Source: a virus
Lineage: Duplodnaviria > Caudoviricetes
Virus record (IMG/VR): IMGVR_UViG_3300024325_000045
Location: 1 to 29,349 of that record
Direction: 5' to 3' (one strand)
Length of the DNA stretch: 29,349 nucleotides
Every line of letters begins with the position of its first letter. The stretch's first letter is position 1. The notes under the pieces were generated by a model. It worked only from the letters and a program-made list of their open reading frames with translations, did not search any database and was not told the DNA's origin. Position numbers and translations under genes: made by a program. Below are positions 507 to 29,349 of this stretch, one piece after another.

Positions 507-752
507 TTATTTTCGGATCGGCTGAACTGGCGGAATCGCCGGCGGCGCCGTGGTATTGATGTCGAATTCCCTGACTCCCTTGGCCAGGCCGGCGAGTCCA
601 GCCCCCAGAGCGTCAAGCTGCGCTGCAGTAACCGGAGATCCGGCTGCGATCTGGTCCTTCAGTGTCTTGACATAAGCAGTAATGTTGGTTTCGGCTGTGC
701 CTACCGCCGCCTGTAAATCGTCAAACTGCGCATTTACTTCATCAATCGTCAT
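507..752 (-). CDS. Small helical/coiled-coil phage protein (81 aa)
   Basis: Start reassigned to ATG 752 (MTIDEVNAQF), preceded by AAGGAGAACT. Ala-rich amphipathic sequence. Confidence 0.75.
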   Translation of the reverse strand: MTIDEVNAQFDDLQAAVGTAETNITAYVKTLKDQIAAGSPVTAAQLDALGAGLAGLAKGVREFDINTTAPPAIPPVQPIRK

Positions 753-760
753 AGTTCTCC

Positions 761-1009
761 TTAGCTTGTCGTGGTTTGATTGAACTGCTCGATCTGATCC
801 TTTGACTCTCTGATGCGAGCCCCGAGCGCGTCCAACTCTTCTGGAGTGGCGCCCGATCCGGGAATCATCCCCAAGTAAGCGGCGAGCGTCTCTTGATTCA
901 ATAGCACATGGTCCAGCTTTTGATCGATGAGGGCGATCTTGCGGAGATCCTCTGAGTTGTGAAGCATCTCCCCCAACAATTCGCTGATTTGCCGCAATAG
1001 AGTCTTCAT
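761..1009 (-). CDS. Small coiled-coil phage protein (82 aa)
   Basis: Helical sequence. Preceded by TGATATAGT 9 nt before the ATG. Shares a motif with the 507..752 protein. Confidence 0.7.
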   Translation of the reverse strand: MKTLLRQISELLGEMLHNSEDLRKIALIDQKLDHVLLNQETLAAYLGMIPGSGATPEELDALGARIRESKDQIEQFNQTTTS

Positions 1010-1035
1010 ATCGAACCAACTATATCACGTTCCGG

Positions 1036-1350
1036 TTACGCGGCCTTCTTTTTCTTGCGCTGCAGTCCGCGCTTCACCAGTTCCTGCACGTATCCGGACA
1101 TCGATAGCCCCGCCGCGTCCGCCCCGGCCCGGATCTTCGGCATCAGATCGGTATCGAACAGCACCGTCATGCGATCCGTGGTAGGCCTGTCCGTTGGCCG
1201 CTTGCGGAGTCCCAGATGCCTGAGGCGGCTTTGCGTCGAGGAGAGTGTACGGCCGAGCGTCTGAGCGAGCGCCGCTGTATCCATCTCCAGGTAATTGGCC
1301 TTGAGTATTTCGTCTTCGCGCTCAGTGAACGGCGCGCCGGGCTTTGGCAT
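1036..1350 (-). CDS. DNA-binding regulator: N-terminal HTH (Myb-like) plus C-terminal ribbon-helix-helix
   Basis: FTEREDEILKANY...AALAQTLGRTLSSTQSRLRHLGL (HTH), then RMTVLFDTDLMPKIRAGADAAGLSMSGYVQELV (RHH pattern). Start set at ATG 1350, downstream of an extended -10. Confidence 0.75.
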   Translation of the reverse strand: MPKPGAPFTEREDEILKANYLEMDTAALAQTLGRTLSSTQSRLRHLGLRKRPTDRPTTDRMTVLFDTDLMPKIRAGADAAGLSMSGYVQELVKRGLQRKKKKAA

Positions 1351-1414
1351 ATTGCGCAAGTATACCACAATTACGCAATGGCGCAATACCGCAAGCGTAG
1401 TTCCAATGTATAAT
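1351..1414. promoter_or_regulatory. Divergent promoter region with operator-like repeats
   Basis: Minus: TTGCGC-16 nt-TATACT with TG extension. Plus: TATAAT at 1409-1414. TTGCGCAA palindrome at 1352-1359. CGCAA at 1374, 1382 and 1390 (8-nt period). Confidence 0.65.
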
Positions 1415-1480
1415 GAATGAGCCGAGCAGCGGTTGGACGCTGCATCGGCCCTACCTAACGCGATCTAAGGAGGATCACGA

Positions 1481-1966
1481 ATGGTCTATCAAAATAGTAC
1501 CCTATTACACAAGTTCATGAGATTCGTGCTGCCTGAGCCTAATTCAGGGTGCTGGCTCTGGACAGGAAATCTCACCTCCCAAGGTTATGGGCGTTTCGTA
1601 GTTCCACGTAAAACCGCCCGTAAGCATACTGACCGAGCTTACAGAGTTGCTTGGGAATTGCTAATTGGCCCAGTTCCTGAAGGTAAGGAACTTGACCACC
1701 TGTGCCGAGTGCGATGTTGCGTAAATCCACAACACTTGGAACCAGTCAGCCATCGAGAGAACTTGCTTCGCGGATCGGGTGCAACCGTCACCAAATTGCG
1801 CTGGGCAACCAGACGAGAAGCCATGACCCACTGTGTAAACGGCCACGAATACACTCTCGCGAACACCAGGATTGATGCCGATGGAGGATATTCTTGTCGT
1901 ACGTGCGACAGGCTAGCTATGCGGAAACACAGACTCCGCTCTTTAATTTCCACAGCAAAGACATGA
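1481..1966 (+). CDS. HNH homing endonuclease (HNH_3-like) with C-terminal Zn-binding domain
   Basis: SGCWLW, GYG, LDHLCRVRCCVNPQHLEPVSHREN, THCVNGHEY, CRTC. RBS TAAGGAGG. Confidence 0.92.
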   Translation: MVYQNSTLLHKFMRFVLPEPNSGCWLWTGNLTSQGYGRFVVPRKTARKHTDRAYRVAWELLIGPVPEGKELDHLCRVRCCVNPQHLEPVSHRENLLRGSGATVTKLRWATRREAMTHCVNGHEYTLANTRIDADGGYSCRTCDRLAMRKHRLRSLISTAKT

Positions 1967-2366: not shown

Positions 2367-3040
2367 TGTTTCACCCATCCCTACACAAAATTCTTCTCAT
2401 CATCCAAATCCTTGCCGCTTTCGCCTACTTCGCGCTCGCGATAAGATTGCTCCGTTCCGGCCGATTTCTCTCGCTACCGTTCTTTTTCGGGTACTCCTGC
2501 CTGATGATTCTCGATTTACTGTGGCATCCCGTCACCATCCGCGAGGTGATCTGGATTGAGCCTTGGTTGCTCTGCTTACGCTTTTGCCTCGTGATCGAGG
2601 CTGCTTGCCTGATCGCAGACAAAACAGATCGCAACTGGCGCCGGTGGCTATTGCTGTTCCTGCTGTTCTTTGGAATCGTGGGCAGCACGCGCGTGGCCGG
2701 CTTCTACCCACTGACTGATTTAGCCGACTGGTATCGAACCGTCCGGCAAACAGCCCATGTAGGATTGGCTGTCATTTGCCTGTCTCTCTGGATATTTCAA
2801 GCCATGGATCAGGACATCAAATGGGATAGGATCTGGTTGCCACACTGCCGCATCGTCAGCGCCTACATGATCGCCAGAGCAGCTTTCAGTTTTGCAGTGA
2901 AACCCGGAGCCGATGTCGAGTACCACCACACCGTGCGAATCTTCGCGCTAGTGTGCTACTCGACCCTGATCGCCATTTGGCTCTGGTACGATCGCCGAGA
3001 CTTACGTGCCGCGCGAGCGGCGGCCTTCCGCAGCCTCTAA
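2363..3040 (+). CDS. Polytopic membrane protein, about 7 TM helices, unknown function
   Basis: Seven hydrophobic stretches in 225 aa, no soluble domain, basic C-terminal tail. Confidence 0.8.
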   Translation: MMFHPSLHKILLIIQILAAFAYFALAIRLLRSGRFLSLPFFFGYSCLMILDLLWHPVTIREVIWIEPWLLCLRFCLVIEAACLIADKTDRNWRRWLLLFLLFFGIVGSTRVAGFYPLTDLADWYRTVRQTAHVGLAVICLSLWIFQAMDQDIKWDRIWLPHCRIVSAYMIARAAFSFAVKPGADVEYHHTVRIFALVCYSTLIAIWLWYDRRDLRAARAAAFRSL

Positions 3041-3247
3041 CCCCTGCACCCTCTGACGTAGATCCGTGTAGTCGGCTTCGAGTTCGGTGAGGCGTTCGCC
3101 ATGCAGCCTCAGATTGATTGTGGCTCGCCTCAGTTCCTCGCTCTGGCCGTTCTTTAGCTTGCCCATCTTGTGATAAGACAGGCCGCTCAACAGGCTGGCC
3201 AGACCGGCTATTAAGTCGCTCCAACCCACCCCCGCAGGTAAGGTCAC
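3002..3247 (-). CDS. Membrane-anchored coiled-coil protein
   Basis: GTG start right after the upstream stop. Hydrophobic N-terminus (LIAGLASLLSGL), then heptad-like LTELEADYTDLRQRVQGLE. Confidence 0.6.
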   Translation of the reverse strand: MTLPAGVGWSDLIAGLASLLSGLSYHKMGKLKNGQSEELRRATINLRLHGERLTELEADYTDLRQRVQGLEAAEGRRSRGT

Positions 3248-24635: not shown

Positions 24636-24820
24636 GGCTTGAAAATCAGAATCGGGCTGAACGGAACCCAGTGACGTGCTTCCACCGATCCCGCGTCGAG
24701 CCGATGCAGTTCGCAGCGCCACTCCTGCCCGCACTTGGGACACCACCACCGCTGCACTTCATCGAGTTTCCCAGTTCGTAAATCCTCACTCAGCGGCCCT
24801 GTGCAACACTCATCAGGCAT
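24632..24820 (-). CDS. Small Zn-ribbon protein
   Basis: MPDECC...WWCPKCGQEW. Start overlaps the portal end. Confidence 0.6.
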   Translation of the reverse strand: MPDECCTGPLSEDLRTGKLDEVQRWWCPKCGQEWRCELHRLDAGSVEARHWVPFSPILIFKP

Positions 24821-26669
24821 GTTCGTGTGCAACACCGTTTCGCTCCGCTTCCACGGCCAGAATCAGTTCTTTGGCCAGTCTCCGGGCCTTCGCTTCACTC
24901 GGCTTTATGGTAGTGGCTGGAGCCGCGGCAGCCTTCGCCGCGTCGTCCTTGGCCTTCTGCCGCTCCGCAATCGACCCTGGAAATTGCTCATCCGCCAATT
25001 CTTCTCCATCCTCGACGTCGAGCAGATCGTAGAGCGCCCGCACTCCTACCTTGATGTCGATACCAGCGTCGATCGCTTTGCATGTCGCTTCGATTTCGGC
25101 CGGCAAGTCACCCTCAAGAATCGCCGGGAAGTTGCAGTTTATAATGATCTCCCCAGGCTTGGGCTCCTCTTTCACTTCGATCAGTCGCAGACCATCCTTC
25201 GATCGTACCCGTTGCGCTTCTCGGATGACGATTTTTGTATCCTTGTATGCCTCGCGCAAGCGACCGGAGGCCGCGCCCTTGCTTGTTGCCAACACATACC
25301 GGCAAATCGTTACCAGATCCTCGCGCCATGCCTCCTGCTTTTCGATGAAGTTGAGTTCGGTCGGCCGGTCCAGCGTTGTGGCTGTCGCCAGGTTGCTCGT
25401 CTCCATATCGCCCAAGAACGTCGGAGGAATCCCGAACACGCACGCGACCATATTACGGTACTCTTTCACTTCTGAAGGATCGCCTCCAGCCCCCTGCGTG
25501 TTGAAAGCTTTAAGCACTGTATCCGGCCCGCTGACAAAGAGCGATCCAGGAATCGCCGGCGGATTGGTATCCCACGGCCCCGAGCTCCCAGTAGCGACGT
25601 TGGTTTGAAGTTGCTGTTTGATCCCTTCCGCAGCTTGCTGCCCGCCCTTCGTGGTAATCGTCGCTGCGAATTGTGCCAAAGATTTCTTGACCGTATAGCA
25701 AGCTTCAAGCCACTGCTTCCCGGTTTTGGCCCAATCGATCGCCGCATAAACCAGCGGGCAGCCATACAGCCACTTTGACACGGCGCCGCATTTCCGATGG
25801 AGTATTGGATTGTCCCACTTGACCTCGTAATTGTTGATCTGCGGGATTTTTTCCGCAGGTTCGTAGCCGAGCGCCGGATACCAGGCCTCGCGGGTTTGCG
25901 TTCCCATTCGAGCGTTCTGTGCGTCGAAGGTTCGCTCTGTCCAGACGCGCCTGTAGAACCATGGCGTATCCGTGTCATCTGGGTTCGTAACGATGTCCAT
26001 GATTTCAGTCGCATCGATCGTGCGAACCGTGACGAGTCCAGAATCCACCGTATCCGCGAAGAAGCAGAAGAAGAGATTCCCGTCGTAGTACTTCCGTCTC
26101 TCAAGATCGGTGAGCGCGATCTGGCCCAGAGTTAATTTGTTTCGCTCAAAGAATTCCTCAAGCGTCTTGTTTGCCGCTTCATCCGGGCTTGAGATTTCGA
26201 CGCCGCGACCGAACACGTAATGAGCCGCCACGTTAATCCCCCGCTGGATCAGCGGGTTTTTAATGTAGTAGAGCCTTGAAATCAGAATGATTTGCTGAAT
26301 CCCCCAGCGCGAAAACTCCAGCCATGAGAGATTGACTTCCCGCCGCCACTCCACATTCGACAGCATCAGGTCCAAGTCGCCGGCCATTCCGGTGGAGTCG
26401 ATTGCTTCGCGGAATTTAAACGGCCCCGGCTGGTTGATTTCGCGTCTCGATTCATGCACGAGCCAAGGCCCCGCGCCAGCCATCTGACGCGCTTCGAGGA
26501 GTTCCGAGGCGCGTTCCACGTAGTCGTTACGGTGGAAGGCTTCACGCTGTGAGGCTTCGTTCAGGAGGGTTTGCTGGTAGCGGCAGAGTCGCAGCAATTC
26601 AGGATCGAGCTTGGGTTGAAGGAAGTGGAAGGCTCGGGCGAGGAGGGCTTGTAAGCGGCGTCGGATCAT
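24813..26669 (-). CDS. Portal protein
   Basis: 618 aa at the head of the head module. RLYYIKNPLI, DGNLFF, YGCPLVY, GIPPTFLGD...NLATA. Confidence 0.85.
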   Translation of the reverse strand: MIRRRLQALLARAFHFLQPKLDPELLRLCRYQQTLLNEASQREAFHRNDYVERASELLEARQMAGAGPWLVHESRREINQPGPFKFREAIDSTGMAGDLDLMLSNVEWRREVNLSWLEFSRWGIQQIILISRLYYIKNPLIQRGINVAAHYVFGRGVEISSPDEAANKTLEEFFERNKLTLGQIALTDLERRKYYDGNLFFCFFADTVDSGLVTVRTIDATEIMDIVTNPDDTDTPWFYRRVWTERTFDAQNARMGTQTREAWYPALGYEPAEKIPQINNYEVKWDNPILHRKCGAVSKWLYGCPLVYAAIDWAKTGKQWLEACYTVKKSLAQFAATITTKGGQQAAEGIKQQLQTNVATGSSGPWDTNPPAIPGSLFVSGPDTVLKAFNTQGAGGDPSEVKEYRNMVACVFGIPPTFLGDMETSNLATATTLDRPTELNFIEKQEAWREDLVTICRYVLATSKGAASGRLREAYKDTKIVIREAQRVRSKDGLRLIEVKEEPKPGEIIINCNFPAILEGDLPAEIEATCKAIDAGIDIKVGVRALYDLLDVEDGEELADEQFPGSIAERQKAKDDAAKAAAAPATTIKPSEAKARRLAKELILAVEAERNGVAHEHA

Positions 26670-26885
26670 GCCGCGATAGTAACACGAATGGCGGCGTAGC
26701 TGGCCATGTCACAGCTCTTTGGACTCGCCGCCACACGTTTTGCCTTCCCTAGGCGGCCAGTTATTCACCGGCTGGGGCCACTCCACGCCCCCTTCGGATA
26801 GGGGTTGCCGGTCCAGATGCTCTCGATGTCAGGAAGGCTGGAGAGCCCACGCTTCGCTCAACAGAAACTTATTTATCCGCAGGGA

Positions 26886-26957
26886 TCACGCTTGCCGATA
26901 TCTGCGAACAGCCCACAGCAGAAACAACACCGGCACCAGATACGCTATATGTTCCAT
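26886..26957 (-). CDS. 23-aa single-TM peptide MEHIAYLVPVLFLLWAVRRYRQA
   Basis: Not in the track. ATG lies 6 nt below a full promoter. Hydrophobic core plus Arg-rich tail. Confidence 0.55.
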   Translation of the reverse strand: MEHIAYLVPVLFLLWAVRRYRQA

Positions 26958-26995
26958 GTCGCAACAATACCACACCTGTGGCTATTGCGCAATAG
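26958..26995 (-). promoter_or_regulatory. Leaderless promoter with 14-bp palindrome over the -35
   Basis: TTGCGC-17 nt-TATTGT with TG extension. CTATTGCGCAATAG at 26982-26995. Confidence 0.65.
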
Positions 26996-27003
26996 GGGTG
27001 GTA

Positions 27004-27906
27004 CTACACCACCCCGAACAGATCGAGCCCCGCCGCCAACCCCGGATGCTCGAGAACTAATCGTTTACACTCCGCTTCCTGATAGGGCTCGGCATCCACG
27101 TCTAGATATTGCATCAGGTGTGCGTACGGAGCCCACCACGAGGCCGGAACCTGATCATATATCCAAGTATCCGGCGTCCCGAACGAGCGATTCCCCGCGT
27201 CTCCGTGGATTGCCCACGAGTACATCCTGTCCATCTCTGCAACGGGCTTATCCGGCCACCGCAGCCGCTCATTCAGCTTGTACAGCGCGTGCTTGGCTTT
27301 CAGCCGCCTCTCGCTGACACCCCAGAGGTGCATCACGCCGCCGTCGCCTTGAGCGATCGGCCTGTAGGGTTGTAACGTCATACCGCGCGGTTCACGATGG
27401 TGGAAGTTGTCGCCGCCCCAGTACAGCCGCTCGTCGTCGCAAAAAGCCGTCGAAAACCAGCGATTTCCCCATATACCATTGGCGTGGTAGCGATTCAGGG
27501 AGCCACGCAGGTTGTATCCCGGCAGTTGAACAATGACTCCTGGAGATGCTTCGTATAATGCAATCGGAGGCCAATCGCCCTTTACCCACGGATGCGGCCC
27601 TAAAGCAGTAAGGTTTCCCGTCAAGATCTCGTCGGCGTCGATAATGGCGATGTGGGTTGCTTTATGATACCGAGCGATTTTTAGCATCCCCTGCCTGTGA
27701 GTCATTTCCTCCCATTCCCCGCTGGCGGTCGCATCATGGATTCTATCTGGGTACTCTCGTCGCAATAGATCAATGATTTGCGGGGTTCTATCTGTGCTCG
27801 CATGATCGAGGATCACCAGTTCGTCCACCCAAAGAAGTGCAGCTCTTGCAGACAATCCCAGTACCCAGGATTCATTTCTACAGCACATCAAGCCCACGAG
27901 TTTCAC
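27004..27906 (-). CDS. Glycosyltransferase family 2
   Basis: [24 protein letters not shown] (DxD), HLW. GTG start overlaps the HNH stop (GTGA). Confidence 0.9.
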
Positions 27907-28388
27907 CGCGACTTCCTCCGATTATTGGCTTGCTCTTTAGCGGTCGCCCACCGACAGTTTCCCGGCTCGTAGTTCCCATCGTTGTTGATGCGGTCGATGC
28001 TCAGACCAGGAGGTATTTCCCCCATGTCCTTCAAAAACATTCGGAAATCCCTCCATCGTTCACACACCGTAATACCCCGAGCTCCGTAATATTTGTATTC
28101 TTTAACGCGCGGGTTGAAACAGCGCGACTGCATTCCGTTCCAGATTCGATAAGTTCTCGATGAAGCCTTACCGTGATACGGTTTGCCTCCGGTGAGGAAC
28201 TGCTGACGCTTGCACCCACAACTAGTGGTGCGGACATTTCGTAGGTTTCTTTGTGAACGCTTGCAGGTCTTTCCGCAATCACATCTACATTCCCAAACGA
28301 ATGAACGGTCCAGGCGCTCGTTGGTTCTCCGAACAGCAACCAGCATCCCGAAACGTCTACCTGTTATATCAACTGGAACTGTTGGCAT
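27903..28388 (-). CDS. HNH homing endonuclease
   Basis: [71 protein letters not shown] 7 nt before the ATG. Confidence 0.93.
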
Positions 28389-28488
28389 GTGGTTTATTAT
28401 AACACCACATCAGCGCCGCCCTCGCCGTCAGGCCCAAGCACCATATTTCGTTGCGCACAGGCATCAGTCCGATCAGCTTCAGCTTCAA
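28369..28488 (-). pseudogene. Orphaned 5' fragment of the glycosyltransferase (29 homologous-region codons, then 10 unrelated codons and a stop)
   Basis: TTG start with GGGAGG RBS and TTGA coupling: [29 protein letters not shown] vs GT2 start [27 protein letters not shown] (18/26 identical). Confidence 0.88.
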
Positions 28489-28682
28489 ACATCCCTCCCC
28501 TGAAGATTATTCCTATACATGCTGGCAGGATCGGGCAAAGGCTTTTCTAAGACGTGGGGAGCTAATTGAAGCGCAATCGTATCAGCCGGAACATCTAGCA
28601 ATCGTGCCAAGCGAACATGGCCGATCATGGCAAGTAGACGCATCACGTCTTTGTCTGAGGGATAATCGCCAATCAGCTTCAT
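28485..28682 (-). CDS. Hypothetical protein (65 aa)
   Basis: ATG 28682 (MKLIGDY) in ATGA overlap with the upstream stop. Confidence 0.55.
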   Translation of the reverse strand: MKLIGDYPSDKDVMRLLAMIGHVRLARLLDVPADTIALQLAPHVLEKPLPDPASMYRNNLQGRDV

Positions 28683-28837
28683 AATTCTCTCAGCCGCTGC
28701 CAGCGCTCCGAATGAAAATGCCGCGTATGCCTTCCCACGGCTCGCGTCATGTGCGGTCCACTCCGTGCCGTAACGACCGTGCCGCATTCCGGACAGGACA
28801 GGGAGCGCCAGCACGGGCTGAAGTACGCTCGCAGCAT
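28679..28837 (-). CDS. Small C2H2-like Zn-finger protein
   Basis: CPECG...RHTRHFH. Start set at ATG 28837. Confidence 0.5.
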   Translation of the reverse strand: MLRAYFSPCWRSLSCPECGTVVTARSGPHMTRAVGRHTRHFHSERWQRLREL

Positions 28838-28851
28838 AATCCAGTACCGCC

Positions 28852-29124
28852 TCACTGAGTCCGTATCTCCTTCGGTGTCCAGTCGATCTTCTTCCATTCG
28901 ATGAAATCCGGTGTGATCTGCCGCACGTGGGCGATCACATTCAACTTCTCTCCGAAGCCCATCACTTTGCCAAGCACGATACAGGGGTCCATATGAACCA
29001 GGGCGCAGTTGTGCTTTCTGAGCACTTGCAAGAGTTCGTCCAGGATCTCTTCGGCTGTATCGACGTCGCCAGTTTCAGGCCGGACGATCATCGTCGGCTT
29101 TAGCTTCAGTTCGTCATCGTTCAT
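28852..29124 (-). CDS. Hypothetical protein (90 aa)
   Basis: Compact ORF in the same-strand run, GGAG upstream. Confidence 0.65.
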   Translation of the reverse strand: MNDDELKLKPTMIVRPETGDVDTAEEILDELLQVLRKHNCALVHMDPCIVLGKVMGFGEKLNVIAHVRQITPDFIEWKKIDWTPKEIRTQ

Positions 29125-29126
29125 GA

Positions 29127-29267
29127 TTAGTACGACTCCTCTGGGAACGCCCAGTGTGCAATCAGCACACCGAGGCGATCTACTGATTTAGGCTCTCCGA
29201 AGAAAGCCCATACCATTGCGATCAGAAACAGCGTTGGAATTGCGATCACCTGTTTCCATGAGTTCAT
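29127..29267 (-). CDS. Small membrane protein (46 aa)
   Basis: ATG 29267 (MNSWKQVIAIPTLFLIAMVWAFF) in ATGA overlap. One TM helix. Confidence 0.55.
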   Translation of the reverse strand: MNSWKQVIAIPTLFLIAMVWAFFGEPKSVDRLGVLIAHWAFPEESY

Positions 29268-29349
29268 TGCATTCGTACTCCACATCTGGCGCACCAGACC
29301 ATCGGGCGCGTCCATATTTGCGCCGCTCCAGCCGCTTTCGCTTTTTCTA
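29264..29349 (-). CDS. 3' end of a CxxC-containing ORF entering from outside the window
   Basis: ...EKAKAAGAAQIWTRPMVWCARCGVRMQ-stop, overlapping the next ATG. Confidence 0.45.
   Translation of the reverse strand, partial: EKAKAAGAAQIWTRPMVWCARCGVRMQ

Follow-up and report, generated by a model that had tools for sequence, protein, structure and literature searches.

The window analysed here is the whole 29,349-nt stretch of viral DNA. It is a single contig of a tailed soil phage, whose minus strand carries genes for the portal, head protease, capsid, neck and tape measure. Along this strand a 109-aa ORF ends in a TGA that overlaps the old TTG start of a GT2 (sugar-transferase) gene at 28488. 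The stranded beginning of GT2 follows, then a nuclease gene, and then a second GT2 start that leads into a complete 300-aa ORF aligning over its full length with its best homologues (Table 1). When extended, the frame of the stranded start encodes a 39-aa peptide whose stop, at 28369, lies within the nuclease gene. The nuclease gene is flanked on one side by the complete host gene and on the other by a second copy of that gene's beginning, and no splicing element accompanies it. The order given in the first-pass annotation, namely an old start with its RBS and coupling, TATAAT, the nuclease and a new start coupled to the nuclease stop, was borne out by the sequence. At the last of these points the new GTG (27906) does overlap the nuclease TGA, and it also has an SD of its own.

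Two other features of the window were noted. No long ORF occurs on the coding strand in the gap of roughly 330 nt that separates GT2 from the portal ORF (26670-27003), and a second, unrelated HNH gene is present at 1481-1966 on the plus strand (Pfam HNH_3, E 9.5e-14).

Table 1. Positions of features in the window and at other loci with terminal duplications around a related nuclease gene.
Locus	Feature	Position	Strand	Observation
Window	Portal gene downstream (head-packaging context)	24813..26669	-	phrog_10963, E 1e-59
Window	GT2 body, codons 28-300, intact	27004..27825	-	PF13704, E 1.3e-6
Window	Replacement GT2 start, codons 1-27, differently coded	27826..27906	-	P8C, V9C and C27V at conserved columns
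Window	Inserted segment, 577 nt; the empty allele has a single base here (net +576 nt)	27826..28402	-	Joint 27825-28403 with one letter between
Window	161-aa HNH-family nuclease ORF, intact	27903..28388	-	phrog_374, E 1e-59
Window	SD GGAGG in last nuclease codons, 8 nt ahead of new start	27915..27919	-	Sequence
Window	Perfect inverted repeat, 7 bp	28387..28410	-	Spans junction: stump arm and insert arm over nuclease start
Window	Predicted extended -10 (TG-N-TATAAT)	28396..28404	-	TG from host codon, TATAAT (28401-28396) from insert
Window	Stranded native GT2 start, 28 codons + TG	28403..28488	-	0 differences over 100 nt (28403-28502) from contig of run X3
Window	RBS of old GT2 start	28493..28500	-	Within stretch identical to empty-allele contig
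Window	Upstream ORF, 109 aa	28485..28814	-	No Pfam or PHROG match
L501/L516/L517	Last 35 residues of gene duplicated in startless remnant beyond nuclease	about 710-1630	+	21-23 identical
L241	Gene, nuclease, 26-aa ORF repeating the gene's C-terminus	680-1350	+	13/21 identical
L228	Gene, nuclease, short ORF repeating the gene's last 26 residues	700-1410 (counted on minus strand)	-	14 identical
L483	13-residue C-terminal duplication flanking nuclease gene (minus strand)			9 identical
L142	8-codon N-terminal stump coupled to upstream stop, nuclease, RBS, new GTG start	about 2440-3100	+	z 4.1

Codon usage of the two GT2 starts

The old and new starts are identical at 18 of 26 residues, and 14 of the 15 shared residues with degenerate codons use different codons, so that both counts made earlier were confirmed. 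Nucleotide identity between the two is 54% and their longest shared word is 7 nt. The new copy had also been described as more A/T-ending, and this holds: GC3 at degenerate codons 2-27 is 0.39 compared with 0.77 in the old start.

As a comparison, 82 distinct family genes were set against each other in 2,944 pairs, and for each pair we measured what fraction of synonymous codons had changed between codons 2 and 27. This fraction averaged 0.59, and only 4 of these pairs, which share ancestry and are not independent, reached 14 of 15 changed codons. The codon divergence between the old and new starts exceeds chance. Compared with the family, the new start had a changed synonymous share of 0.80, with every family member at 0.74 or below. 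Its codon sharing at identical residues was 0.19 over codons 2-27 (as low in none of the 82 members) and 0.12 over codons 16-26 (as low in 1 of 81), and was ordinary from codon 28 onward (0.38 over codons 28-39; 17 of 82 as low). When amino-acid changes were counted as well, the new start ranked second of 83 and not first. The old start departs from none of the conserved family columns that it covers, compared with 3 of 17 for the new start. At the junction, the codons TGG TGC GAC of the empty allele described below are TGG GTG GAC in the new start.

The GC3 of the downstream GT2 gene is about 0.49 up to codon 124-161 (27537-27424) and 0.71 thereafter (change point permutation p 0.011), with a stronger change point in 1 of the 82 family members. 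Because GC3 stays low this far, the incoming DNA may exceed the promoter, nuclease and 26 codons. It is possible from this pattern that a longer foreign tract was acquired and that only its junction-side part was driven away from the family spelling.

An allele without the nuclease

The region is contained in three read runs: X1 and X2, which are possibly the source data, and X3, which is from a separate study; no RNA data set was among those listed as containing it. In X1 and X2, 26000-29349 lies in a single contig with 1 and 0 differences, respectively. Run X3 has a 151-nt contig (depth 2.2) that matches 28403-28502 at 0 differences, has one other letter, and then continues from 27825 onward for 36 nt. 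This contig was placed at 80% likeness; its 36-nt arm may contain mismatches and its last 14 nt do not fit. On the coding strand it reads TGG TGC GAC, or W-C-D, in an in-frame joint that skips the 577-nt insert. TGG TGC GAY are the junction codons in 59 of the 82 GT2 family genes.

Nuclease-free relatives had been expected to read through ALMW-C-D and to match the old copy at the DNA level. The X3 contig does both, with 100 of 100 positions equal. The old start had been delimited as 28488-28402. Its start position stands, but the native part can be followed only to 28403 because position 28402 is T in the window but C in the empty allele. An adjacent X3 contig is identical to the window across 28512-28662 (151 nt), and variants in the same run are 90-96% identical over the small upstream ORFs (window 28614-29125). 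These variants mean that more than one related phage is present in run X3, and together with the identical contig they show that close relatives of the window phage occur there. Most of the nuclease gene and of the GT2 body has no coverage in run X3, an absence that carries no weight for or against.

Because the empty allele equals the old start at the DNA level, the stump is native and the 577-nt segment is the newcomer; a single low-depth contig stands behind this allele. The idea of an insertion cassette that supplies a recoded N-terminus is supported by the empty allele, although the unit itself may be longer than first proposed.

The nuclease

The nuclease matches PHROG HNH families, as well as viral proteins whose annotation is HNH or AP2-linked, and it had no Pfam match. 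Its earlier designation as HNH agrees with the PHROG match, but the catalytic His is absent and the modelled protein looks PacI-like. It has a His-less D-R...Y...N motif; an alignment of 88 sequences shows no variation at R133 and Y140, has N156 in at least 90% of the sequences and lacks the catalytic His. Two relatives, P0121 and P0241, are 84-85% identical to it.

The structural model (pLDDT 90.7) has a predicted PacI-like nuclease domain at residues 73-160 preceded by an SH3-like domain at 2-53; a single-sequence fold was discarded (pLDDT 35). The closest solved structure, ranked first of 48,161 chains, is PacI (3m7k; rmsd 2.7, 74 aligned), with a Z of 5.7 that is only middling. A Foldseek search of the PDB with the model gave nothing at E 0.001, and sequence searches of solved structures gave nothing credible. 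Judged by the residue spacing in PacI, the conserved residues may be equivalent to those of PacI. The 161-aa protein is predicted to be active as a nuclease.

PacI has Tyr in place of the catalytic His (PMC5714182, PMC3384342), and PacI-like His-Me finger nucleases are group 20 of PMC5714182, in the accessible parts of these papers. With the absence of His, the invariant Tyr in a loop and the top structural match, at its middling Z, the modelled nuclease may be PacI-like; PacI itself is a restriction enzyme. One PacI-like phage nuclease that was assayed had no significant exclusion activity, according to the available portion of PMC12724721.

Expression signals

TATAAT lies 7 nt ahead of the nuclease ATG, which has no SD. 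It had been proposed that the junction itself forms an extended -10. The TG-N-TATAAT sequence is indeed present, but no -35 was found near it and a consensus promoter scan gave 0 sites. A transcript from this -10 would be leaderless, as predicted from its position. TATAAT occurs 4-9 nt before a start in 9 of 208 family genes, a raw count that includes the window gene. Translation could be coupled through the stump frame, whose stop lies within the nuclease gene. From this arrangement, the nuclease is likely to be expressed either from the junction extended -10 or by ribosomes that end the stump peptide.

The 7-bp inverted repeat over the nuclease start may, speculatively, be a hairpin or operator. 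We treat it as a lead only, because 741 nt of sequence gave 17 inverted pairs and because neither junction region did better than its shuffles in RNA folding (z 0.19 for the inverted-repeat region as a whole). Together with the -10, the repeat recalls the promoter-in-hairpin control of T4 endonucleases that is described in the accessible sections of PMC2988022 and PMC10448857.

The GT2 family and distribution of the cassette

The GT2 family is large (963 proteins at E 1e-10 among 3,241 candidates), and D90, D92 and E93 are invariant in its alignment. Of 93 GT2 loci, including some with short flanks, 34 carry a portal homologue in the flanking DNA. Because the four best genome matches are Acidobacteriota, a host in this phylum is likely. 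Cultured phages have GT2 relatives at only 22-23%.

Tandem GT2 paralogues had been named as evidence that would count against an insertion. No second GT2 start was found in the best 80 of 96 viral loci, in 47 pattern loci or in 21 genome loci, which are overlapping sets. Among 129 records with any start match, two GT2 starts occur only in the window, to which 2 of the records correspond. When the metagenome collection was scanned for the cassette-shaped pattern with inserts of similar length, only the window's own record (L330) was recovered. Viral contigs gave no relative in a single-protein GT2 scan, and in a nuclease scan the best 80 of 565 matches had at most 54% identity and none adjoined a GT2 gene. 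The only two candidates from a stump-peptide search of a protein collection (P0243 and P0244) are not stumps; we consider them fragments because both continue into DEL....

In three of the 82 family genes (L005, L014 and L199), the GT2 start is overlapped by the stop of a nuclease that is related to the window's but longer, and there is no stump. In L005 a TATAAT lies 5 nt ahead of the nuclease ATG. The idea that these stumpless genes are also recoded was not supported, since their GT2 starts, at ranks 8, 24 and 13 of 83, respectively, have no marked recoding. On its gene order, this layout is the one that would be expected of a donor. Separately, a genome bin (L333, 2501-3343) has a GT2 homologue that begins at residue 27, with no nuclease or start within 2.5 kb upstream; speculatively, this is a rearrangement or misassembly.

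Terminal duplications around related nucleases

A search for nuclease genes flanked by duplications had also been suggested. We surveyed 280 related nuclease genes, having excluded beforehand those with less than 330 nt upstream or less than 240 nt downstream. A flanking protein duplication reached z of at least 4 in 9 of the 280, the window included. L533 (z 20) was dropped for flanks that resemble paralogues and L406 (z 5.2) for its lack of ORF logic, and L228 was kept by eye at z 3.9. This left five other lineages with terminal duplications, four C-terminal and one N-terminal (Table 1). About 2 in 100 genes of the sampled His-less nuclease family have this layout. Synonymous change in the five lineages is ordinary (44-71%).

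In the L501/L516/L517 lineage a TTGACT-17-TACAAT promoter match lies between the gene end and the nuclease, and the upstream gene has a C-terminus that we take to be neck-protein-like. The genes at L241 and L228 are presumably ASCH-like and an SbcC-like ATPase, respectively. For the N-terminal case, L142, a 70% identical locus (L593) has no nuclease at that place and its gene starts in the same way.

A model for homing and the alternatives

We think it probable, given the gene order, codons and empty allele, that a free-standing nuclease gene entered a phage GT2 gene at its W-C codons, close to the start, bringing a recoded copy of the displaced start with it, and that it spreads by homing. 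We infer from the codon pattern that the cut site is at the junction. The nuclease would cut intact GT2 alleles near W26-C27-D28, and repair of the break from a carrier would copy the insert in and leave the GT2 gene complete. The stump would act as the left homology arm and the GT2 body as the right arm, so that the recipient would come to have the nuclease and the carried start behind a newly made stump. Because homing would never refresh the carried start, it would drift with the nuclease. It would also be selected to differ most beside the junction (codons 16-27), and the recoding would prevent both re-cutting and loss by recombination with the stump, given their low identity and short shared words. 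The likely origin would be intronless homing from a phage with the nuclease upstream of its own GT2 gene, with the left end joined without homology and an incoming tract that may extend to codon ~124-161.

An alternative that we consider rather unlikely is that a single recombination from a lower-GC phage brought in the nuclease along with a foreign GT2 gene, either whole or only its front half. The locus would then be a one-off mosaic scar with the stump as a leftover; the codon differences would reflect donor ancestry and the unit would not target the site. The low GC3 to codon 124-161, with its change point stronger in only 1 of 82 members, fits this account, as does the failure of the X3 contig to fit beyond 36 nt past the joint. 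So do L005, L014 and L199, where a nuclease overlaps the GT2 start without a stump or marked recoding, and the presence of the cassette in one phage only in the metagenome pattern scan for similar-length inserts. By contrast, the unusual codons cluster at 16-26 and stop at the junction, the junction codon itself is altered (C27V), the break adjoins an invariant W codon, the divergence is above nearly all family pairs, and the same layout recurs in other genes in the survey of 280. The mosaic and homing accounts have a common origin and differ on site-specific cutting and repeated homing.

Splicing is very improbable. A group I intron would consist of the 576 nt between ...TGT and GAC, and the insert does formally begin after U and end in G, with the frame kept upon its removal and W-C-D restored. 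However, searching 26500-29349 against Rfam gave nothing, even at E up to 1. The insert is almost wholly coding, for the nuclease and the replacement start, which leaves no room for a ribozyme core, and splicing is unnecessary because the complete second start has its own SD. Hardly any likelihood attaches to one long protein made from the old start by ribosomal recoding or by a ShiLan-type read-through insertion, since, although the GT2 stump and body share a frame across the insert, ten stop codons lie between them in translation, whereas the ShiLan insertion has none in the host frame in the accessible text of PMC11855218. A decayed tandem paralogue or an assembly artefact is extremely unlikely: nothing was found in its favour except that X1 and X2 may be source data, and against it the stump shows no decay and has the same sequence as an intact allele, both runs span the region nearly without differences, and the window alone among the records with a start match has two GT2 starts.

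Relationship to known mobile elements

The fungal mitochondrial parallel drawn in the first-pass annotation is published, and a similar one exists in yeast, with the difference that those elements replace 3' ends. For WHO elements at FBA1 of Torulaspora and Lachancea the mechanism has been demonstrated, including allele-specific cutting (PMC7282813). As described in the accessible part of that paper, they resemble the window element in that no splicing occurs, a nuclease gene separates the working gene from a second copy of one of its ends, the end that is carried has diverged, and a role as homology arm has been proposed for the stranded fragment. They differ in replacing the 3' end, in having intein-like zinc-finger nucleases and in occurring in clusters, whereas the window has a 5' end, in a phage, with one copy of an HNH-type nuclease whose cutting is predicted. 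Mobile endonuclease ORFs of fungal mitochondria (mORFs) form gene hybrids in Allomyces atp6 and in Glomus atp6, atp9, cox2 and nad3 (PMC3630166, as excerpted). As in the window, the native piece equals relatives in DNA and the carried piece is far more distant in DNA than in protein. The fungal pieces are C-terminal and accompany LAGLIDADG or GIY-YIG nucleases in mitochondria, in contrast to a 5' replacement by an HNH-family gene, which must bring a ribosome site, and the window insert does. The window element works like WHO elements and mORFs but is a member of neither.

Among phage elements, the free-standing seg and mob endonucleases of T4 are similar in that a free-standing nuclease lies beside a conserved phage gene and donor sequence replaces the target (PMC2988022, PMC10448857). 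In the available parts of these sources they are intergenic, cleave hundreds to thousands of bases away and have no stranded duplicate described; the window insertion lies inside a recipient codon relative to the empty allele, and no intron was found. The stumpless nuclease neighbours in the same GT2 family (L005, L014 and L199) are intergenic. Insertion into a coding region without splicing also occurs with mobE in Aeh1 nrdA and mobA in T4 gene 60. These leave two complementary polypeptides (PMC2988022, accessible part), whereas the downstream GT2 of the window is complete alone. The accessible text of PMC10448857 and PMC2988022 describes endonucleases of ICP1-like phages and T4 as intergenic, intronic or gene-splitting, with no stranded starts. 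Our literature search, which mostly excluded subscription papers, found no phage description of such elements. Because terminal replacement is published for 3' ends (WHO, mORFs), the 5'-end phage form is the new part.

Significance

Engineered home-and-rescue gene drives reportedly link a cutter to a recoded, rescuing copy of the targeted part of a gene; these are synthetic, Cas9-based and in insects, unlike the window element. We see an about even chance that phages carry natural equivalents of such drives. These would form a class that is widespread yet has no name: homing elements that do without splicing, insert within the opening or closing codons of a conserved gene and bring a re-spelled version of that end together with its ribosome site. 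In the window, the captured half of the target would also give part of the nuclease promoter and one hairpin arm over the start codon, so that the nuclease would be on, and controlled, only at the proper site.

The filled and empty alleles, identical upstream, are exact substrates for a cleavage comparison. The His-less nuclease family is large, and we found little evidence on its activity. Stumps of this kind are easily missed, since our stump search of the protein collection gave two candidates, neither of them of this kind; the starts and ends of phage genes can differ in ancestry from the rest of the gene. If our reading is true, the window element would represent a fourth mode in which phage nuclease genes reside inside a gene, besides the intron, the intein and the split protein, and would be the phage counterpart, at a 5' end, of the yeast WHO elements at 3' ends.
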